From NCBI GenBank assembly GCA_031409335.1, contig JANNWY010000220.1:1-18516 (forward strand): 18,516 nucleotides of DNA, written 5' to 3'. A program made the position numbers and the translations under genes. Every line of letters begins with the position of its first letter. Position 1 is the first letter of the stretch. Below are positions 1 to 18,378 of this stretch, in pieces. This DNA is from Chthoniobacteraceae bacterium (GTDB lineage: Bacteria; Verrucomicrobiota; Verrucomicrobiia; Chthoniobacterales; Chthoniobacteraceae). The notes beneath the pieces were generated by a model. That model saw only the letters and a list, made by a program, of their open reading frames with translations, did no database searches and was not told the origin of the DNA.

Positions 1-99
1 ATCGCGGGGACACAATCGAAATGGCTTCGGCCTTCGCTGCTGACGCTGGCGATCATCGCCACCGTCCTCGCCGCGACCGGCTGCACGCCCCACCACTAA
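1..99 (+). CDS. 3' part of a tiny putative lipoprotein (5'-truncated by the window edge), ...SKWLRPSLLTLAIIATVLAATG-CTPHH*
   Basis: Frame 1 is open from base 1 to TAA at 97-99. It has a hydrophobic stretch plus lipobox-like AATG-C. Bases 16-84 align ungapped to 1746-1814 (53/69 nt identical by hand count). Not in the ORF track. Confidence 0.6.
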   Translation: MAGTQSKWLRPSLLTLAIIATVLAATGCTPHH

Positions 100-112
100 G
101 TCATCCTCCACC

Positions 113-280
113 ATGAAAACGACACTTCCATCCACACTCGCCGCGCTGAGCTTCGCCATTCTCGCAGCGATCATGTTATCCGGTTGTGCGAGCAGCGGCG
201 GTTCCGGGAGCGGAACGCACGAAATGGGTCCGCCAAAAAGCCCCTCCAGGATGTCCGATCGGGATATGCCCGGTCGCTGA
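113..280 (+). CDS. Small putative lipoprotein, 55 aa (MKTTLPSTLAALSFAILAAIMLSG-CASSGGSGSGTHEMGPPKSPSRMSDRDMPGR)
   Basis: Translated by hand: ATG 113, TGA 278-280. MK start, hydrophobic core and canonical lipobox LSGC. It fills the gap before the ALDH ATG and is below the ORF-track length cutoff. Confidence 0.75.
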   Translation: MKTTLPSTLAALSFAILAAIMLSGCASSGGSGSGTHEMGPPKSPSRMSDRDMPGR

Positions 281-306
281 GGAACTGCGCAGAGCGCCAC
301 GAAGCC

Positions 307-1689
307 ATGAGCTACCAGAGCGTTAATCCCTCCAACGGCAAAACTCTCAAGACGTTCGCGGAACTCACCGACGAGCAGCTTGAGGCGGCGCTGCAAACCG
401 CTGCGACCTGCTTCGAGAGCTGGCGGCGCACGACATTCGCCGAGCGTGCCACAGTCGCCGCCAAAGCCGCCGCGATCATGCGGGCGCGCATCGACGAGTT
501 CGCCCGCCCCGTGACGCTGGAGATGGGCAAGCTCTTCGCGCAGGCCCGCGGCGAAGTGGTCCTCAGCGCAGACATCATCGACTACTACGCGAAGAACGCC
601 GAGCGCTTCCTCGCCACGGAAACCCTCCAGCCGGGCACGGGCGAAGCCGAGGTCGAAAGCACTCCCTTCGGTGTGCTCTTCGGCGTCCAGCCTTGGAACT
701 TTCCCTACTACCAGCTCGCGCGCTTTGCCGCGCCAAATCTCATGGCGGGCAATGTCGTGATGGTGAAGCACGCGGGGTGCGTCCCACAATGCGCCATCGC
801 CTTTGAGAAGCTGTGGCTGGAGGCGGGAGCGCCAGCGGGCGCTTACACGAATCTGCTCATCTCGCATGACCAGGTGAACCGCGTCATCGACGATCCTCGG
901 ATCAAAGGTGTGGCGCTGACCGGCAGCGTGGAAGCCGGCAAAAGCGTGGCCGCGAGAGCCGGACAAAACCTCAAGAAATCCACGATGGAGCTGGGCGGCA
1001 GCGACGCCTTCATCGTGCTCGATGATGCCGACCTCGATAAGACCGTCGAGTGGGCCGTCTGGGCGAAGATGAACAACACCGGCCAGTGCTGCGTCGCGGC
1101 GAAGCGCTTCATCGTCGTCGAAGAATTGGCCGATTCCTTTCTCACAAAGTTTGGAATGGCGCTGGCGGCGCTCAAGCCCGGCGACCCGATGGACGCGGCG
1201 ACAACGCTCGGCCCGCTCTCCACGGAAGCGGCCTTGGTGCAACTGCTCGGACAAGTCGAAGAAGCCGTAGCGAAAGGTGCCGACGTGGTCATGGGTGGCA
1301 AACGCATCGACCGCCCCGGCTCGTTTATGCAGCCGACGATCCTGACAAATATCCAGCCCGGCAATCCCGCCTTCCGGGAGGAATTCTTCGGGCCGGTCGC
1401 GCTTTTGTTCCGAGTTAAGAACGAAGACGAGGCGGTGGCCCTAGCGAATGACTCGGAATTCGGTTTGGGCGGCTCGGTCTTCACCAGGGACGTGGCGCGC
1501 GGCAAACGCCTCGCGAGCCGCATCGACACAGGCATGGTCTTCATCAATCACCCGACTTGGACAACACCGGATCTGCCCTTCGGCGGCATCAAAAACTCCG
1601 GTTACGGACGCGAACTTTCCAGCATGGGCATCCAGGAGTTCGTGAACAAGAAACTCGTCCGCGTCAGTGCCATCGACGCCCCGGCATAG
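307..1689 (+). CDS. NAD(P)-dependent aldehyde dehydrogenase, succinate-semialdehyde dehydrogenase (Sad/GabD1-like) family
   Basis: Motifs QPWNFP, LTGS, MELGGSD (catalytic Glu), GQCCVA (catalytic Cys), EEFFGPV, PFGGIKNSGYGRE. Start moved to ATG 307 (MSYQSVNP) because 184-306 overlaps the small lipoprotein gene. Confidence 0.93.
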   Translation: MSYQSVNPSNGKTLKTFAELTDEQLEAALQTAATCFESWRRTTFAERATVAAKAAAIMRARIDEFARPVTLEMGKLFAQARGEVVLSADIIDYYAKNAERFLATETLQPGTGEAEVESTPFGVLFGVQPWNFPYYQLARFAAPNLMAGNVVMVKHAGCVPQCAIAFEKLWLEAGAPAGAYTNLLISHDQVNRVIDDPRIKGVALTGSVEAGKSVAARAGQNLKKSTMELGGSDAFIVLDDADLDKTVEWAVWAKMNNTGQCCVAAKRFIVVEELADSFLTKFGMALAALKPGDPMDAATTLGPLSTEAALVQLLGQVEEAVAKGADVVMGGKRIDRPGSFMQPTILTNIQPGNPAFREEFFGPVALLFRVKNEDEAVALANDSEFGLGGSVFTRDVARGKRLASRIDTGMVFINHPTWTTPDLPFGGIKNSGYGRELSSMGIQEFVNKKLVRVSAIDAPA

Positions 1690-1697
1690 CAAAAATC

Positions 1698-1916
1698 ATG
1701 AAACCAAAAAACACACTCACCGGCGCAACAAACGCGGTGACACCATCGAAATGGATACAGGCCGCGCTGATGACCTTGGCGCTCTTCGCCGCCGCCCTCG
1801 TCGTGACTGGCTGCGACCGCTCCGGCGACTCCGACCATCGCGACTCCGACCACCGCGATTCCGACCACCGCATGAATCACGGCAACCAAAACCATCCCAG
1901 CGGAGGGAACAACTAA
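1698..1916 (+). CDS. Small putative lipoprotein, 72 aa, with Asp/His-rich (DSDHR)x3 mature region
   Basis: ATG 1698 follows AAAAATC, 8 nt after the ALDH stop. Hydrophobic stretch plus VVTG-C lipobox. Mature part is CDRSGDSDHRDSDHRDSDHRMNHGNQNHPSGGNN. Confidence 0.72.
   Translation: MKPKNTLTGATNAVTPSKWIQAALMTLALFAAALVVTGCDRSGDSDHRDSDHRDSDHRMNHGNQNHPSGGNN
1827..1871 (+). repeat. 15-bp coding tandem repeat x3 (GAYTCCGACCAYCGC = DSDHR)
   Basis: gactccgaccatcgc / gactccgaccaccgc / gattccgaccaccgc. The differences are all synonymous third positions. Confidence 0.95.
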
Positions 1917-1932
1917 TCCGAAAGGACTGACT

Positions 1933-2121
1933 ATGACCAAAATCACCGAAACGACCAAAGACCCCATCTGCGGAATGACCGTGGACGAAGCCACCGCTCT
2001 CCACGCCGAACGCGATGGGAAGACCTTCTACTTTTGCAGCGACCACTGCCGGCAGAAGTTTCTGTCCACGCCCGCCGACGCAAAGCCCGAGGAAAAGTCG
2101 GGCGGCTGTTGCGGGTCTTAG
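1933..2121 (+). CDS. Stand-alone YHS-domain protein (putative Cu-binding or chaperone)
   Basis: KDPICGMTV...DGKTFYFCSDHCRQKF signature, C-terminal GGCCGS, and AAAGGA upstream. Confidence 0.88.
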   Translation: MTKITETTKDPICGMTVDEATALHAERDGKTFYFCSDHCRQKFLSTPADAKPEEKSGGCCGS

Positions 2122-2148: not shown

Positions 2149-3303
2149 ATGAAAACACCCTACTCTTCCGCACGCACTATCGTCGCCACGGCCTTTGCTG
2201 GAGTGCTCTTCTCAGTCCTCAGCGCTGGCGACTTACCCGCGCAGACTCCGAAACCGGCTACCCCGCCGGCTGATCCCGCGACCCACGCGGCGCACGTCGC
2301 CGCAGGCAAGATGCCAGCCACGCCCGCGCCGGATGCGGCGAAGGGCAATCCCGCGCTCTCGCAAGATGTCTCGCAGTTGCAGGCGAAGATCGCGCAGCTC
2401 GAAGCCGCTCTCGCGAAAGGTGCGCCGCCGATAGCCGCTGCTCCGGCTGGTGCAGCGATGCCGGGAATGCCAGCAGCAACCCCAGCCGCCAGTCCTGCGA
2501 TGGGCATGGGGATGGGCAAAATGACACCCGGTGCCGCGATGCCGGGCATGAGCCCGGATGCCACAGTTCCACCGATGCCCGGGATGAGCGGCGCAGCGAT
2601 GCCCGCAGGACCGCCCATGAACATGATGGGCATGATGGATAAGATGATGGGGATGATGGACAAAATGATGAGCATGGGCGGCGGCGGCATGCCTGCTGCC
2701 ACACCGATGGCAGGCGGCGGCGGCGGCATGGGCATGATGGATATGGACATGATGAAGATGGGTGGCGGCGGCTCGATGCCTCCCCCACCAGCAGCGGCCA
2801 TGGCCGCCCGCGGCATGGCGATGGGAAAGGACATGATGAAGATGGCCGGGATGATGGGCATGGGTGCAATGCCCGCCGCCGCAACGGGAGCCATGCCGCA
2901 ATCCGCGCTGCCCGGCTTCCCCGGCGCATCGCACCTCTACCACCTCGGTGCGACGGACTTCTTCCTTGATCACCCGCAGCACATCGCGCTCACGACCGAG
3001 CAACAGGCCGCACTCAATAAGGCCAAGGAACAGGCGCTGCTCGCCAAGAGCACCGCGGATCGCGCCATCGAGCAAGCCGAGCAGGACCTGTGGACCCTCA
3101 CGGCTTCCGATCAGCCCGACGCCGCCAAGATCGAGGGTAAAATCGTCGAGATTGCAAAGCTGACCGGCGATGCGCGCCTCGCCTTCATCCGCGCCGTGGG
3201 CGAAGCGAGCAAACTCCTCACCGACGAGCAGCGCAAAGTTCTCACCGGTTTCGCGCCACCCACGCCCGCTACGGCTCCGATGGCCCCGATGAAAGGCATG
3301 TGA
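2149..3303 (+). CDS. Exported, extremely Met-rich protein with a C-terminal Spy/CpxP/ZraP-like (periplasmic heavy-metal sensor) helical domain
   Basis: Signal peptide ending near LPA-QTP, a short coiled coil, and about 45 Met in a Gly/Pro/Ala-rich central region. The C-domain has IALTTEQQAAL and LLTDEQRKVL (LTxxQ motifs) and a His cluster SHLYH...DHPQH. Confidence 0.82.
   Translation: MKTPYSSARTIVATAFAGVLFSVLSAGDLPAQTPKPATPPADPATHAAHVAAGKMPATPAPDAAKGNPALSQDVSQLQAKIAQLEAALAKGAPPIAAAPAGAAMPGMPAATPAASPAMGMGMGKMTPGAAMPGMSPDATVPPMPGMSGAAMPAGPPMNMMGMMDKMMGMMDKMMSMGGGGMPAATPMAGGGGGMGMMDMDMMKMGGGGSMPPPPAAAMAARGMAMGKDMMKMAGMMGMGAMPAAATGAMPQSALPGFPGASHLYHLGATDFFLDHPQHIALTTEQQAALNKAKEQALLAKSTADRAIEQAEQDLWTLTASDQPDAAKIEGKIVEIAKLTGDARLAFIRAVGEASKLLTDEQRKVLTGFAPPTPATAPMAPMKGM
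2623..2670 (+). repeat. 21-bp coding tandem repeat (MMGMMDK x2 plus MM)
   Basis: atgatgggcatgatggataag / atgatggggatgatggacaaa / atgatg. Confidence 0.85.
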
Positions 3304-5198: not shown

Positions 5199-6068
5199 AT
5201 GAAATCAACATTCCAATCACTCAATCAGCGGCGCTTGATCAGCGTCGGCGCAGTTCTTTGGCTGCTGATCGGTCTGCTCTGGTCGTTGGGTCTGCGGGCG
5301 CAAACTCCCGAGGAACACGCGAGCCATCATCCCGGTGCGGTTGGTGCTCCGGCGGCTGGAGCAATGCCCGCAGCCGGTGGAGTTCCCGGTCCCGGCGGCA
5401 TGGGACCGCCGGCAGGCGTGGGGCCACCGGCGGGTGCGGGAGGCATGATGGGGGGCGGCATGGGCGAGATGATGGATGGCATGATGAAGAAAATGGGCGT
5501 GCCGCCGCCGAAGGAACTCTATCCGACGCTCATGGCGTTGCCGGAGCTTTCGCCCGAGCAGCGCACGCAAGTCGAGACGCAAGCCAGTGGGCGGATGCAC
5601 ACGGGCACGGTCTTGATGGGACAAGCGCTCGACGCGCTCAACGCGGGCACTGCGTCCGATAACTACGCCGCAATGCACGATGCCATGACCCAGATGCGCG
5701 AAGGCATCGCGCAACTGGAGAGCGGCATCGCCGCACGCCGCGCGCTGGCGGAAGGCCGTGCCCCGCGCGACGTGGCGCTGGCGTGGTTCAAGCAGGAGAT
5801 GAGCCTCTCGCTCGCCGCCGCGCCAGTGGCGCATCAGCGGGCGGGAGTCACGGTATTTCACCTCTTCGCGATGGTGCTGCTGATTGCGTTCGCGCTCGCC
5901 ATGGTCGCCATGTATTTCTTCAAGATGCGCCGTGCGGCGGCGCTCTTTGGGCGGATCGAAGCGGGCAAGGGAGCACCGCCGCCGGGATCGGCACCGGAGC
6001 TTGCGGGCGGCAAACCTGCGTCCGGCGACAAACCAGCCACTCCTGCCGATCAGCCTGCTGCACCATGA
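5199..6068 (+). CDS. Membrane-anchored exported His/Met-rich protein of unknown function
   Basis: Signal peptide (LRA-QTP), EEHASHH, a Gly/Met tract (MMGGGMGEMMDGMMKKMG), a helical domain, and a C-terminal TM helix followed by KMRR and a Pro/Ala tail. The stop overlaps the next start (ATGA 6065-6068). Confidence 0.8.
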   Translation: MKSTFQSLNQRRLISVGAVLWLLIGLLWSLGLRAQTPEEHASHHPGAVGAPAAGAMPAAGGVPGPGGMGPPAGVGPPAGAGGMMGGGMGEMMDGMMKKMGVPPPKELYPTLMALPELSPEQRTQVETQASGRMHTGTVLMGQALDALNAGTASDNYAAMHDAMTQMREGIAQLESGIAARRALAEGRAPRDVALAWFKQEMSLSLAAAPVAHQRAGVTVFHLFAMVLLIAFALAMVAMYFFKMRRAAALFGRIEAGKGAPPPGSAPELAGGKPASGDKPATPADQPAAP

Positions 6069-7150
6069 GCGATCTGCCTCCAGAAAAGGCCGCGCCGCCT
6101 TTGACTGCGAACTGGCGCGGGCAGCTTCGCGTGGGGAGCGTCATCAAGGAAACACCGAACGTGAAGACGTTCCGGCTGCTTCCTTCATCCGGCGATCACT
6201 TCCTCCCTTTCACCTTTGTGCCCGGTCAATTCCTCAACCTCGCGTTCTGGATTGGCGGCGCGCGGATGAACCGCTCCTACTCCATTTCATCCTCTCCGAA
6301 CCAGCATGAATACGTCGATCTGACCGTGCGACGCGAGCCGCGCGGAGCAGTGTCGCGTCATATCGTTGACCTGCTCAAGGTGGGCGACACAATCGAAGCA
6401 GGTGGCCCGGTCGGAAAATTTACTTTCACCGGAAAAGAGGCGGACAGCATCGTCCTCATTTCCGGCGGCGTGGGCATCACGCCGATGGTCAGCATTAGTC
6501 GCTATCTCACGGAGCAGTCATGGCCCGGTGACATCTTCTTCATCTACGCGTGCCGCACTCCGGCCGACTATATTCTGGCGGATGCCATCGCCGCGCTTGA
6601 ACGCGAGAATCCCAAGCTTCACGTCATTGTCACCATGACCCGTCCCGAGGGGACGGATTGGAAAGGCCCGCGCGGACATCTGACCGAGGAGCTACTCACG
6701 CAGTCTGTTCCCGATCTTACTTCGCGGAGAATCCACCTCTGCGGCCCGGTTCCGATGATGGACGCGACCAAAGCGCTCCTAGCCGAGTTGGGAGTTCCGC
6801 CGGAACAACTCAAGACCGAAGCATTCGGCACACCCAAACCCACCCCGGCTGCCGCGGGAACCACAGCCAAACCTACTGTCTCAGCAACGGGACCGCAGGT
6901 CACGTTTTCCAACAATAACAAGTCGGCGAAGATCCACGATGGTCAGACCGTGCTCGAACTTTCTGAGGAACTCGGCATCGGAATCCAGTTCTCCTGCCGC
7001 GTCGGCACCTGTGGCGTGTGCAAGGTGAAGATGACTTCCGGCGAGGTCACGATGGCAGTCGAGGACTCACTCGACGCCGATGATAAGACCAACGGCATCA
7101 TCCTCGCCTGTCAGGCCATCCCGAAAGGCGACATAGCCGTCGAAGCGTAG
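6065..7150 (+). CDS. FAD/NAD(P)H ferredoxin-reductase-type oxidoreductase with a C-terminal 2Fe-2S domain (Hcr/PaaE-like architecture)
   Basis: RSYSISS, GAVS, ISGGVGITPM, HLCGP, EAF, and CRVGTCGVC...LAC. ATG 6065 is coupled to the upstream TGA. Confidence 0.92.
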   Translation: MSDLPPEKAAPPLTANWRGQLRVGSVIKETPNVKTFRLLPSSGDHFLPFTFVPGQFLNLAFWIGGARMNRSYSISSSPNQHEYVDLTVRREPRGAVSRHIVDLLKVGDTIEAGGPVGKFTFTGKEADSIVLISGGVGITPMVSISRYLTEQSWPGDIFFIYACRTPADYILADAIAALERENPKLHVIVTMTRPEGTDWKGPRGHLTEELLTQSVPDLTSRRIHLCGPVPMMDATKALLAELGVPPEQLKTEAFGTPKPTPAAAGTTAKPTVSATGPQVTFSNNNKSAKIHDGQTVLELSEELGIGIQFSCRVGTCGVCKVKMTSGEVTMAVEDSLDADDKTNGIILACQAIPKGDIAVEA

Positions 7151-7154
7151 CCCT

Positions 7155-7898
7155 ATGAAAGACCGCGAACGCATCGTCATCACCGGCATTCTCACCCTCC
7201 TCGTGCTGGGCTGGCTCGGCTTTCTCTTTCACACGTCGCCGCGCTTTGCGGGCAGCGGCATGGGGGCGGTGTTTGGCATCGCGGGGGCCGTGCTCATGTT
7301 GATCCCGCTCGCCTATCCCATCGTCAAGCGCATCCCCTTTATCAACGCGCGGGTCACCAAGCATGTCTCGATGCAGACGCAGCTCGCCGTGCATGTCTAT
7401 GCGGGCATCTTCGGCCCTTTGCTCGCGATCATCCACACCGGCCACAAGTATGAAAGCTGGCTGGGAATCTCGCTCACGGCAGTGATGCTGCTCGTCGTCG
7501 TCAGTGGGTTCGCCGTGCGCTATCTGCTCACCTATGTCAATCAGGAGGTGAAAGATAAACTGCTCCTGCTCCAGACCGCCCGTGGCGATCTCGACCATGC
7601 GTGGGGCGTGCTGGAAAACACTCCGGTCGAAATGCGCGGCCTGCCGAATGCGCGCCTCCTGACGGCCGGACTGGCATCGGTGGGGATCGACCTGTCATCC
7701 GGCGGCCCAGCCGGTGAAGTGACCCGCCTCGCCGAATCCGTGGCGGACCTGGAGTATGCGGTGCGCACGCACGAGTTCTTCAAACGCTGGTTCGCCCGAA
7801 CTTTGAAGCTGCACATCGTCCTTTCCATCATGCTCTATGTGCTGCTGGGGCTTCACGTCTGGGCGGGGATTCATTTCGGGCTGAGGTGGCTACCATGA
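7155..7898 (+). CDS. Integral membrane protein, ferric-reductase-like / di-heme cytochrome b
   Basis: Several hydrophobic helices. Two carry His pairs 14 residues apart (HVYAGIFGPLLAIIH and HIVLSIMLYVLLGLH), as in bis-His heme b ligation. Confidence 0.78.
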   Translation: MKDRERIVITGILTLLVLGWLGFLFHTSPRFAGSGMGAVFGIAGAVLMLIPLAYPIVKRIPFINARVTKHVSMQTQLAVHVYAGIFGPLLAIIHTGHKYESWLGISLTAVMLLVVVSGFAVRYLLTYVNQEVKDKLLLLQTARGDLDHAWGVLENTPVEMRGLPNARLLTAGLASVGIDLSSGGPAGEVTRLAESVADLEYAVRTHEFFKRWFARTLKLHIVLSIMLYVLLGLHVWAGIHFGLRWLP

Positions 7899-8704
7899 CT
7901 CTAAAAAAAGCACTGCTGTTTGCGACCATCACCCTCGTCCTGCTGGCGCTCGCTTTCTTTGTCTTCTCCGCCCGCCACCCGGATAAAACCGCGCGTGCCA
8001 TCCTCTCGCCGGCCTCCTGGCAGCACATGGTCGTCCCCGGCGAACTGTCCCAGCCGCATGCCTTTCTCGTCAACAATTGCGCTGCGTGCCACACCGCGAA
8101 CAAGGGCGTCGAGGCGCAGAACTGCATCGTCTGCCATGCCGACAACAAGGCTGTCCTGCAACGCCAGCCGAGCGCCTTTCACGCGGACATCGGCGAGTGT
8201 GCCACCTGCCATCTCGAACATCGGGGGCGGGTGCCGAGGACGACGCAGATGGACCATGTCGCGCTCGCGCGCATCGGGTTCAAGCAACTCAAAGGCGAAC
8301 CATCGCGCGCCGGCGTGGACGTGGCGCAAATCAAACACTGGCTCGAAGAAACCAGCGCAGCGCCGCAACCAACCTTCGCCCATCTGCAACCGGAAGAAGC
8401 GCTGCTGAACTGCGCGACATGCCACCAAACCAAAGACCGGCACCGCGGTCTGTTCGGCAACGACTGCGCGCAATGCCACGGGACGACGAAATGGACACTC
8501 CCGGAGTTTCGCCATCCCTCGGCCGCGTCGCAGTCCTGCGCGCAATGTCATCAAGCGCCGCCGAGCCATTACATGATGCACTTCCAAATGATCTCGATGG
8601 GCGTCGCGCACATGAAGAAAGCGGAGGTCAGCCAATGCTTCTTCTGCCATCAGACAACCTCGTGGAACGACATCAAAGGCGTGGGCTATTACAAACATCA
8701 CTGA
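7895..8704 (+). CDS. Heptaheme c-type cytochrome with an N-terminal anchor or signal
   Basis: Seven CxxCH motifs (CAACH, CIVCH, CATCH, CATCH, CAQCH, CAQCH, CFFCH) and an N-terminal hydrophobic helix. ATG 7895 overlaps the upstream TGA. Confidence 0.9.
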   Translation: MTLKKALLFATITLVLLALAFFVFSARHPDKTARAILSPASWQHMVVPGELSQPHAFLVNNCAACHTANKGVEAQNCIVCHADNKAVLQRQPSAFHADIGECATCHLEHRGRVPRTTQMDHVALARIGFKQLKGEPSRAGVDVAQIKHWLEETSAAPQPTFAHLQPEEALLNCATCHQTKDRHRGLFGNDCAQCHGTTKWTLPEFRHPSAASQSCAQCHQAPPSHYMMHFQMISMGVAHMKKAEVSQCFFCHQTTSWNDIKGVGYYKHH

Positions 8705-10222: not shown

Positions 10223-10246
10223 GTCTCGGTGAAGGAACCAATCGCC

Positions 10247-12649
<2,403 letters not shown>

Positions 12650-15781: not shown

Positions 15782-16186
15782 TTACTTGTGAGGCTGGTGG
15801 TGCTCCTGGTCGCGGAGAAAGCGGGTGCCGTCGGCTGGGTTCATTACGGCAGCCATTTCAGCATGGTGCGCGGCGGTGTCGCCGGGACCGTGGCCCGGCC
15901 TCGTAAGGCGGTTGCCGGTGCCGTGGAAGGCGAATTCGATTTCGAGGATGCGGCGGGCTTGCGCGTCGTTGAGATGATAGGTCGTGCGCCACTCGTCGAT
16001 GGTGCTGGTGAGCGACTTTGCAAAAGCCGCCTTTTCCACTGATATGCGGTAGGCGATCGAACCCCCCACGATGCCAAAAATCAGGGCGATGATGCCCCAG
16101 ATTTGCAGCAGGTCTTTGCGGCTGAATTTCGTCAGCTTCGCGGCCTCGCCTCGCAGATTTCTTTTCTGTTTCGGCGGGCGTTTCAC
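15782..16186 (-). CDS. Single-pass membrane protein with a His-rich helical extracytoplasmic domain
   Basis: GTG 16186 overlaps the ATPase TGA. Basic N-terminus, one TM helix (IWGIIALIFGIVGGSIAY), then HLNDAQ, AAHHAEM and EHHQPHK. Confidence 0.7.
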   Translation of the reverse strand: MKRPPKQKRNLRGEAAKLTKFSRKDLLQIWGIIALIFGIVGGSIAYRISVEKAAFAKSLTSTIDEWRTTYHLNDAQARRILEIEFAFHGTGNRLTRPGHGPGDTAAHHAEMAAVMNPADGTRFLRDQEHHQPHK

Positions 16187-18378
16187 GGGGCGGGTGCGCG
16201 GAGCAGGCGCAGCGCGTTGGCGATCACGATAAGGGTCGCGCCGGTGTCGGCGAGAATGGCGAGCCACAGACTCGTGTAGCCGAGCACCGCGAGAACGAGG
16301 AAGATGGCTTTGATCGCGAGGGCGAAGGCGATGTTGAATTGGATGATGCCGACGGTGCGGCGACCGAGGGCGATGGCTTCGGCGACTTTGCCGAGATCGT
16401 CCTGCATCAGCGCCACGTCGGCGGTTTCGATGGCGGTGTCGGTGCCGGCCTGGCCCATCGCGATGCCGATGCTCGCGGCGGCCATCGCGGGCGCGTCGTT
16501 CACGCCGTCGCCGATCATGCCGACGTATTTGAACTGCTCGGTGAGCGCGCGGACGCGGGCGATTTTGTCGTCGGGCAAAAGGTCGCCGTGCGCTTCGTCG
16601 ATACCGGCTTGTTTCGCGATGGCGTCGGCGGTGCGCTGGTTGTCGCCGCTGAGCATGACGACTTTCTCGACGCCCGCCGCGTGGATGGCGCGCAACGCCT
16701 CGGCAGCGTTTGGGCGGATGGTGTCGCCGACGGCGAGGATGCCGAGGACTTCGCCTTTGCAGTCGGCGTGCGGCTTGTGGCCGACGACGACCACGGACAG
16801 CGCCTCGCTTTCGATCTCGGCGAGGCGCTGCTCGATCTCGGGTGTGCAGACGCCGATCTCGTGCGCGAAGCGGTGATTGCCAACGAAGTAGCGATGACGG
16901 GCGATGGTGCCCTCTGCTCCACGCCCGCTGAGCGACTGGTAATCTTCGCTGCGCTCGAAGAGCACTTTCTTCTCCGTTGCGTAGGCGACGACGGCGAGCG
17001 CCAGCGGGTGTTCGGAATGCGTGTCGATGCCAGCAGCAATGCGGAGGATTTCTTCATCGGTTCCTTTCACCACCACGACTTTCGTCACGCGCGGTTTGCC
17101 TTCGGTAATCGTGCCGGTCTTATCCACGGCGAGCGCGCGCAGTTTGCCGATCGCTTCCAGCACCGCGCCGCCTTTGATGAGCACGCCGCGCCGGGCCATC
17201 GCGGTGAGGCCGGAGACGACGGAGACGGGCGTGGAAATGACGAGCGCGCACGGACACGCGATGACCAGCAGGACGAGGCCGCGGTAAAACCACGCGAGCC
17301 ACGCGCCGCCGAAAAGCAGCGGCGGCACGAGCATCACGAGCAGCGCGGCGACCATCACGGACGGCGTGTAGTAGCGGGCGAAGACATCGACAAAACGCTG
17401 CGACGGCGCTTTCTGCGACTGCGCCTCTTCGACCAAGTGGATGATTTTCGCGATCGTCGTGTCGGTGTGCGCCTTGGTGGTTTGGATTTCGAGCGAGCCT
17501 GCGCCGTTGATCGTCCCGGCGAAAACGGCGTCGCCCGGCTTCTTCTCCACCGGCATCGACTCGCCGGTGATCGGCGCTTGATTGATCGCGGATTCGCCTG
17601 CGGTCACGACGCCATCGAGCGGCACGCGCGAGCCGGATTTCACGGCGATGGTCGCGCCGACGGCGACTTCCGCGACTGGCACTTCACGGAAATCATTACC
17701 CTCCTTGAGCAGCGCCGTCTCCGGCGTGAGTTGCATGAGCGCCTGCACGGCCTTGCGGGCGCGGGCGAGGCTGAAGGCTTCGAGCAATTCCGAGAGCGCG
17801 AAAAGGAACGTGACCGCCGCACCTTCGGAGAATTCGCCAATCGCCATCGCGCCCGCGACGGCCACGGTCATCAGCACATTCATATCGAGCGCGAGCCGCC
17901 GCACCGCGCGCCACGCCTTCGGCGCGATGAACCAACCGCCCGCCACAATCGCGATGCCAAAAACAATGTTCGCCGCGAGCGCCGGGCCGAACTTCATCCA
18001 CTGCGCGAGCAGGCCGAGGCCCGTGAAGACACCCGAAACGGCGACGGAAATCTGCCGCATCCGTTTCGCGCCCTCCACGTCTGCAGCATCGTCTCCGTCG
18101 CGCACCGCTTTCATGCCGGTGCTCGCGACCGCGCCGATGAGCAGCTCCGGCGTCACGCTCTCGTCGTGGAAGAGCGTGACCTTCCCGCCCATGAGATTCA
18201 CCCGCACTTCGCGCACGCCTTTCAGCGGGCGAAACACCTGCTCCAGCGCCTCGACTTCATCCGCGCAATCCATGCCCGCCACCCGCAGCGTCGTCTCGAT
18301 GTTGCCCTTGGAGTCGGAGTTCAGCGCGATGTTCTTCGCTTCGTCGCCTGACTTGTGATCGTGAGGTTTGTCGCTCAT
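16183..18378 (-). CDS. cadA: Zn/Cd/Pb-translocating P1B-2 ATPase (CadA/ZntA family)
   Basis: HMA domain GMDCADE, TGES, CPCALVISTP, DKTGT, SEHP, GDGVNDAP, Lys in AIKAIF, and ADTG in the last TM. Confidence 0.93.
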   Translation of the reverse strand: MSDKPHDHKSGDEAKNIALNSDSKGNIETTLRVAGMDCADEVEALEQVFRPLKGVREVRVNLMGGKVTLFHDESVTPELLIGAVASTGMKAVRDGDDAADVEGAKRMRQISVAVSGVFTGLGLLAQWMKFGPALAANIVFGIAIVAGGWFIAPKAWRAVRRLALDMNVLMTVAVAGAMAIGEFSEGAAVTFLFALSELLEAFSLARARKAVQALMQLTPETALLKEGNDFREVPVAEVAVGATIAVKSGSRVPLDGVVTAGESAINQAPITGESMPVEKKPGDAVFAGTINGAGSLEIQTTKAHTDTTIAKIIHLVEEAQSQKAPSQRFVDVFARYYTPSVMVAALLVMLVPPLLFGGAWLAWFYRGLVLLVIACPCALVISTPVSVVSGLTAMARRGVLIKGGAVLEAIGKLRALAVDKTGTITEGKPRVTKVVVVKGTDEEILRIAAGIDTHSEHPLALAVVAYATEKKVLFERSEDYQSLSGRGAEGTIARHRYFVGNHRFAHEIGVCTPEIEQRLAEIESEALSVVVVGHKPHADCKGEVLGILAVGDTIRPNAAEALRAIHAAGVEKVVMLSGDNQRTADAIAKQAGIDEAHGDLLPDDKIARVRALTEQFKYVGMIGDGVNDAPAMAAASIGIAMGQAGTDTAIETADVALMQDDLGKVAEAIALGRRTVGIIQFNIAFALAIKAIFLVLAVLGYTSLWLAILADTGATLIVIANALRLLRAPAP

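Follow-up and report, generated by a model that had tools for sequence, protein, structure and literature searches.

Can a bacterial gene encode a lipoprotein with a mature part of only five residues, or does an open reading frame (ORF) of this kind mark the edge of a contig? The question is raised by contig JANNWY010000220.1 of a Chthoniobacteraceae bacterium, an 18,516 bp stretch that was analysed whole and is called the window here (contig C220 of a 7.9 Mb genome). All three small lipobox ORFs listed in a first-pass annotation of this DNA were found on the plus strand at the positions given there. ORF1 (1 to 99) comprises codons 12 to 43 and the stop codon of a 43 amino acid (aa) precursor, as determined by ORF calling and contig overlap. 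Its lipobox Cys39 and the predicted five-residue mature core CTPHH, identified from the sequence and its homologues, occupy positions 82 to 96. Unmodified, this core has a mass of 593.24 Da, to which three C16:0 chains would add about 789 Da. ORF2 (113 to 280) encodes a 55 aa precursor with its own 24 aa leader, Cys25 (185 to 187) and a 31-residue His/Met core (HxMG..M..M). ORF3 (1698 to 1916) encodes a 72 aa precursor with a 38 aa leader of the ORF1 type, Cys39 (1812 to 1814) and a 34-residue Asp/His/Asn core. Three 15-nucleotide (nt) repeats coding for DSDHR (1827 to 1871) lie in the ORF3 core; relatives have fewer copies and a 15-nt deletion within the repeats was seen in run X4. The ORF listing delimited ORF2 exactly and opened ORF3 at an upstream TTG. 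A possible GTG start is present at codon 14 of ORF3, where ORF1 has GGG. A second start at this codon (GTG or ATG) was found in 12 of 14 close genes and is not retained in the wider family; the choice of start leaves the mature product unchanged.

The window opens inside ORF1. Contig comparison showed that the end of contig C26 forms an exact 141-nt overlap with window positions 1 to 141. The upstream start codon on which the first-pass annotation had made ORF1 depend was located on C26 as an ATG 33 nt before base 1 (L001:10654; loci are labelled L0xx and relative proteins P0xxx). Since the overlap supplies this ATG, ORF1 is 43 aa long with its lipobox Cys at residue 39 and ends in CTPHH. A contig from a public run spans L001:10450-10827 with 0 differences (its source sample may be the same). 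The overlap, the matching public contig and homologues that end alike rule out ORF1 as a truncation or assembly-edge artefact.

Positions 16 to 84 and 1746 to 1814 match without gaps at 53 of 69 nt, which reproduces the reported leader match and is far above the next-best ungapped site in the genome (42 of 69, both strands). The similarity between ORF1 and ORF3 covers the entire leader (85 of 117 nt, 18 of 39 aa) and drops to 5 of 15 nt past the Cys, so that it does end at the lipobox Cys as had been claimed. The ORF2 leader is unlike the other two: its last 48 nt match 16 in ORF1 and 17 in ORF3, compared with 38 of 48 between ORF1 and ORF3. A whole-genome search found no leader copies besides those of ORF1 and ORF3. 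The near-identity of the two leaders reflects recent duplication or recombination.

A search with the ORF1 protein alone returned four relatives, all of 43 aa and all ending in CTPHH. None of 100 matches to the ORF3 protein alone was a relative and profiles were needed. A joint ORF1/ORF3 profile gave 49 close relatives. Cores of 5 to 7 residues were found in 30 of these, every one ending in His, while 18 had Asp/His/Asn-rich cores of 24 to 34 residues and one carried the heavy-metal-binding domain (HMBD) PF19335. A HMMER profile search of 1.84 billion representative proteins gave 86 more distant relatives, with the spurious matches P0127 and P0128 left out of the counts. In 53 of the 86 a core of 4 to 10 residues followed the lipobox Cys, with 39 distinct cores, the shortest being CPHH. 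The first-pass annotation had proposed homologue length as a check on ORF1, and relatives of both sets stop at the same place. Fifty of the 53 micro cores end in His, 50 have at least two His, 30 end in HH, 17 end in HxH and none is without His. Longer cores were present in 27 of the 86: four of HMBD type, one ORF2-like, two CKPHH read-throughs and one spurious among them. The remaining six had no lipobox by the rule of the script, one of which (P0061) does have a lipobox missed by the position rule.

The profile had included His columns, so a leader-only profile was used to rescore the hits as a control. With it 60 of the 86 passed, of which 39 were micro forms, and 36 of these 39 end in His. 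Leaders of the micro forms have a mean identity of 35% (right-anchored, ungapped), and 33 aligned members are 37 to 67% identical to one reference. The "conserved leader" of the first-pass annotation therefore stands as a real, shared leader family but not as its best-kept part, for in the wide family nearly all leader columns are less well kept than the terminal His (50 of 53). One leader type carries HH/HxH cores, Asp/His-rich cores (as in ORF3), HMBD cores and once an ORF2-like core, and cores have therefore been shuffled. The family of conserved leaders and variable cores is thus borne out and, with the HMBD and ORF2-like cores, is wider than proposed. PF19335 was found in the leader relatives P0042, L023 and L042 and not in ORF1 to ORF3. 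Most precursors are 41 to 46 aa. All 53 micro forms have leaders of at least 31 residues, while leaders of 24 to 25 residues were seen with longer cores only. Perhaps the long N-region serves to lift a tiny precursor over a minimum length for export, though the contrast is biased since gene callers would drop shorter forms. ORF2 has a family of its own with 11 relatives and a nearly invariant His/Met core (pS 0.70 and pN 0.18 over nine genes). ORF1 to ORF3 had no Pfam match at E 0.01 and no NCBIfam match near the cut-off. The Atlas gave no usable match for ORF1; there ORF2 resembles generic small lipoproteins at 0.87, which is only a lead.

A tiny lipobox ORF alone is weak evidence, and the case rests on the homologues. 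A crude scan of the genome found four lipobox ORFs with mature parts of 10 residues or fewer compared to one in each of two shuffled genomes, and no shuffled ORF of this kind had two His. The lipoboxes of ORF1, ORF2 and ORF3 are ATGC, VTGC and LSGC. Gly-Cys is kept in 49 of 49 close relatives. Substitutions were placed on a tree of 12 micro-gene loci, after L024, L038, L039, L040, L011 and L028, which repeat other loci, had been dropped. Cys39 underwent four synonymous and no other changes, and Gly38 three and none. The stop codon switched between TAA and TGA three times and was never lost, while the last codon had two synonymous and one non-synonymous change. All four codons are in use for the Pro before HH. 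This is a real, selected family of micro-genes that is absent from the annotation.

ORF1 to ORF3 were picked out by a rule-based scan for a positively charged n-region and an uncharged, hydrophobic h-region, with a mean h-region hydrophobicity of 0.64 to 0.73. The PROSITE rule places the lipobox Cys about 15 to 35 residues from the start; the Cys of ORF2 (Cys25) lies inside this range and that of ORF1 and ORF3 (Cys39) beyond it. Lgt, LspA, Lnt and LolA are all encoded in the genome, with matches above the cut-off. The leader was read as a Sec signal cleaved by signal peptidase II (SPII) because the lipobox is its best-conserved part and because the same leader delivers the folded PF19335 HMBD, which argues for an export signal. 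A conserved twin-arginine (Tat) motif was not seen: most relatives have other residues in place of the RR of ORF1. An amphipathic N-region was not found, the moment being 0.09 to 0.30 and inconsistent among members. At the level of sequence ORF1 to ORF3 have the features of Sec/SPII lipoproteins, leader length excepted.

Taken on balance, ORF1-type products are somewhat more probably than otherwise Sec/SPII micro-lipopeptides whose HH or HxH binds a metal, copper being the likeliest. ORF1 and ORF3 would be translated as precursors with the shared 38-residue leader ending in a lipobox. Export would probably be post-translational because the chain is so short. Cys39 would receive a diacylglyceryl group from Lgt, be cleaved by LspA and be N-acylated by the housekeeping pathway, with no tailoring enzyme. 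The predicted ORF1 product is a five-residue membrane-anchored lipopeptide and, across the family, an acylated Cys with 3 to 7 further residues. HxH binds copper as bis-His does. The bis-His motif of Ctr1 peptides binds both Cu(II) and Cu(I) (PMC9117721). A terminal HH or HxH may thus bind Cu(I) two-coordinately, or two neighbouring lipopeptides may bind Cu(II). The outcome would be a lipid-like buffer for metal at the periplasmic side of a membrane, beside efflux ATPases and an oxidase. ORF2, with its His/Met core, and ORF3, with its Asp/His repeats, would apply the same principle in longer, unstructured chains. The leader probably derives from the HMBD-bearing form that is found ahead of TolC/CusB-type efflux genes. 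Lipidated copper-binding peptides exist, and lipidated oxazolins have been proposed as membrane copper holders (10.1101/2025.10.31.685832); a comparable role is described for CopL (PMC8546587).

ORF1 to ORF3 lie in a metal island. An aldehyde dehydrogenase gene (307 to 1689, plus strand; PF00171, 1e-135) is placed inside the cluster, followed on the same strand by genes for a YHS-domain protein (1933 to 2121; PF04945, 2e-13) and a Met-rich protein (2149 to 3303), which has a predicted signal peptide and whose C-terminus weakly resembles Metal_resist/Spy/ZraP (PF13801, below cut-off). A P1B ATPase with two HMBD repeats and CPC, YN and MxxSS motifs is encoded at 10229 to 12649 (plus strand), and another with an HMA domain and CPC, K and DxG motifs at 16183 to 18378 (minus strand). 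From their motifs we take the former to be copper-type and the latter Zn/Cd-type. C26 and C220 together encode a CopA-type multicopper oxidase, CopB, three P1B ATPases and the YHS protein, in addition to the signal-peptide Met-rich protein, a multiheme cytochrome and a VIT1 protein. At least one island gene recurs in 11 of the 12 micro-gene loci, and four of the 12 have a family explicitly of copper resistance or heavy-metal efflux. In L023 a CPGPHH gene is followed in tandem by an HMBD gene (PF19335) with the same leader and then by OEP and CusB-type genes. A 24 aa version of the leader carries the HMBD in L042 and L043, ahead of an OEP gene. In L022 a CKPHH gene lies behind an aldehyde dehydrogenase gene, the place of ORF3 in the window.

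Several further genes were observed in and around the islands. Very Met-rich proteins with signal-like N-termini are encoded at window positions 2149 to 3303 and 5199 to 6068, and the former recurs in 10 of 20 loci. The run from 5199 to 8704 encodes a Met-rich membrane protein, a FAD/2Fe-2S reductase, a membrane protein and a multiheme cytochrome c; it is conserved in L019 and L034, partly in L041, and is possibly a metal redox module. L001:8866-9087 encodes a metallothionein-like protein of about 65 to 73 aa with a signal-like N-terminus and paired-Cys motifs but no Pfam match, and similar ORFs were found in L005, L007, L009, L034 and L041. His/Cys-rich proteins with an N-terminal hydrophobic stretch are encoded at L022:1689-2198, L026:2351-2893, L027:3837-4385 and L042:1710-2150, the last ending in a Pro-containing tail. 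Three of the four were scanned and had no Pfam match; the proteins resemble copper-responsive upstream proteins of the CruR/CutF type. A family of proteins of 120 to 165 aa was found in L022, L019, L026, L027 and L004; these have signal-like N-termini, more than one CxxC pair each and ends rich in His and Met, and the members scanned had no Pfam match above the cut-off. Further small lipobox ORFs with mature parts of 17 to 20 residues, one ending in two Cys-Cys pairs, were seen in G000:C41, C107 and C22. A phage terminase large-subunit gene (L019:10321-11580) adjoins the island in genome G330.

A number of results weigh against metal-binding micro-lipopeptides. The genes are rare and dispensable, being present in four of 151 genomes of the family and none of four other genomes of the genus. 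The count of micro-gene loci that share an island gene has no background rate alongside, and its queries came from these islands. The neighbourhood counts cover these 12 loci, the 53 distant micro forms being proteins without genomic context. Copper is not singled out because the island has a Zn/Cd-type ATPase and non-metal genes. Cys39 is late for a lipobox Cys, the median in the genome being 21 with five of 49 long lipobox ORFs at 36 or later. Over the 13 genes for which DNA was available the leader shows only moderate constraint, as is expected for a signal peptide: it is free of indels and has a pN/pS of 0.55. L025, the single allele to lose its His, has lost both and has a Gln in the h-region. 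Four of the 86 distant relatives (P0073, P0109, P0125 and P0131) have no intact lipobox, two of which still end in HH, and two (P0075 and P0107) read through the stop; some copies therefore decay.

The leader could alternatively be retained in a small one-helix membrane protein, uncut and possibly lipidated, which tunes an island transporter and uses its His tail as a periplasmic metal-sensing tip. AcrZ and KdpF are small proteins that bind or tune transporters in this way. Such a role would account for the late Cys39, for a leader length that stays close to 38 (87% of the 53 micro forms have their Met there), for the retention of W19, S17 and P22 at 72 to 79%, and for members that adjoin RND and P-type ATPase genes (L020, L023). 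It is nevertheless unlikely: the leader that would be the working part also carries a folded HMBD and many unrelated cores, its best-conserved part is Gly-Cys, most h-region columns vary freely, neighbours change between loci, and HMBD forms with a short leader exist (L042, L043).

The islands also bear marks of rearrangement. A 5' module is repeated in them: first a hairpin, formed by GCGAAC-N5-GTTCGC or by a GCACTGCGCAG arm of greater length, next a stretch rich in A and C, and last a start context common to the copies. It was observed at L001:9104 and L001:10585 and in L021, L022, L023, L025, L026, L027 and L034, before micro-genes as well as CBM48, CxxC-rich and His/Tyr-rich genes. Aldehyde dehydrogenase and ORF2 genes are preceded by the start context without the rest of the module. 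Either gene shuffling or regulation may be the role of the module. Fusion and deletion alleles (P0057, P0058 and P0060) join the aldehyde dehydrogenase N-terminus to ORF3, or the ORF2 N-terminus to ORF3 at a shared 10-nt stretch. ORF2 is joined to a YHS gene (window position 278 to 1954) in contigs from two runs of one study, and the aldehyde dehydrogenase gene is absent or cut in some relatives. On a leader tree the cores are mixed, with 14 changes against a minimum of four, but the tree is poorly resolved (10 of 52 branches well supported) and is too weak to order events. Given the module and the fusion and deletion alleles, cores were likely exchanged by recombination.

By the same process the micro-genes could be vestiges, functionless signal-peptide stubs left when HMBD or His-rich lipoprotein genes were deleted or recombined among repeated 5' modules. 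The module before many island genes, the fusion and deletion alleles with their shared junction, the mixed cores, the patchy distribution and the decayed alleles are all as a vestige would have them. Against a vestige, 39 distinct cores of 4 to 10 residues nearly all retain a terminal His pair despite diverging leaders. In the 12 loci Cys, Gly and stop change synonymously only, and read-through forms are just two of 86. This origin is improbable.

Slightly less probable again are cis-acting, metal-sensing leader peptides, in which translation or stalling would control the next gene, as in the copper-responsive upstream ORF CruR. The short ORFs do lie behind a strong hairpin and end 13 nt before the next start in L001, L007 and L041. 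What lies downstream, and how far away, differs between members, and behind some of them comes a hairpin instead of a gene. A Pro-rich arrest motif was not seen, and such a role needs no invariant lipobox.

DAG-RiPP precursors with cores tailored by an enzyme encoded elsewhere, which would share the layout of leader plus variable core and the lipidation pathway, are very improbable, because the one MNIO of the genome lies on a different contig and has a Cys-rich precursor to itself, no MNIO or partner matching the genome's own was found by tblastn in the 20 loci (of 1 to 19 kb, so that a distant gene could escape), a second Cys occurs in only one of 53 micro cores (CQPCH) and no Cys follows the lipobox in ORF1 to ORF3. 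That MNIO locus, L035 (G000:C12:34261-38043), is unlinked to the island. Besides the MNIO gene it contains a partner gene and encodes a precursor that is rich in Cys and Lys, has a signal-like N-terminus and is taken here to be bufferin-like.

Strong matches to the micro-genes were found in two of 401 genomes of the phylum, with the weak matches of this search not counted. The family is present in one of 21 genomes in the order of G330. Those weak genome matches that were read, with E about 1e-5 to 1e-2, turned out to be either unrelated frames or signal peptides of an ordinary kind. The island is patchily distributed and the micro-gene family is accessory. The named loci come from metagenome-assembled genomes of Chthoniobacteraceae, Chthoniobacterales and Verrucomicrobiales, from which a verrucomicrobial host is inferred. 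One leader relative is labelled Clostridia by its source and may be due to transfer or mis-binning. None of 109 pattern matches in viral contigs was confirmed, and the plasmid collection had no match.

A close functional parallel to metal-binding micro-lipopeptides is with the DAG-RiPPs, which comprise lipidated bufferins, oxazolins (NedA) and chryseobasins (DybA). These are short ribosomal peptides matured by Lgt, LspA and Lnt and proposed to hold copper at the membrane, but their Cys motifs have to be modified by an MNIO, and the mining for them covered 50 to 160 aa (10.1101/2025.10.31.685832). By contrast, the micro-genes have no MNIO in the 20 loci, would use plain His ligands and mostly encode precursors of 41 to 46 aa, below the 50 aa cut-off. 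CopL is a folded protein of ordinary size. CopL of Staphylococcus aureus is likewise a copper-binding lipoprotein from a mobile copper-resistance region with a P-type ATPase neighbour, but it is a surface protein of a Gram-positive host; it was set apart on these grounds and without sequence comparison (PMC8546587).

Single-HMBD (PF19335) lipoproteins encoded before TolC/CusB-type genes share a homologous leader, the lipobox and the same islands (L023, L042, L043, P0042 and P0100). They carry a folded Cys/His/Met domain, whereas ORF1 to ORF3 have only short unstructured His or His/Met cores. PcoE, SilE and CopK are soluble, disordered, His/Met-rich periplasmic metal sponges of copper and silver resistance islands. 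The ORF2 and ORF3 cores are like them in composition and island setting; they are several times shorter and, if processed, lipid-anchored, and ORF1 to ORF3 gave no match to these families. Entericidins and colicin lysis proteins are lipobox precursors of 45 to 55 aa with mature parts of about 25 to 35 residues that are not His-tipped; precursor size and lipobox are alike, but the context differs and there is no family match. Judged by their sequences, ORF1 to ORF3 would work like a metal-binding lipoprotein or a DAG-RiPP and are members of neither named family. Neither this family nor a bacterial lipoprotein with a mature part of fewer than 10 residues was found in the literature searched, which covered few subscription journals and the DAG-RiPP preprint without its supplements.

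The fullest form of the proposal, on which the evidence is evenly poised, is a gene-encoded metal-chelating lipid. It would consist of a triacylated Cys and 3 to 7 residues ending in a His pair, made by the ordinary pathway with no tailoring, and would be part of a leader-shuffled kit (HH/HxH, Asp/His-repeat, His/Met and HMBD cores) that lines the envelope with sinks for copper. Cores of this length can be synthesised and the genes can be expressed in a laboratory strain, so that the claim is cheap to test. Such genes lie below the usual annotation and mining cut-offs and routine proteomics does not reach products of this size, which means that the class may be overlooked widely. If the proposal is true, these products would be shorter than any natural lipoprotein found in the literature searched. 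If processed as predicted, they would set a natural lower bound of four to five residues for maturation by Sec, Lgt, LspA and Lnt, and they would exemplify a form of metal defence intermediate between the head group of a lipid and a protein.

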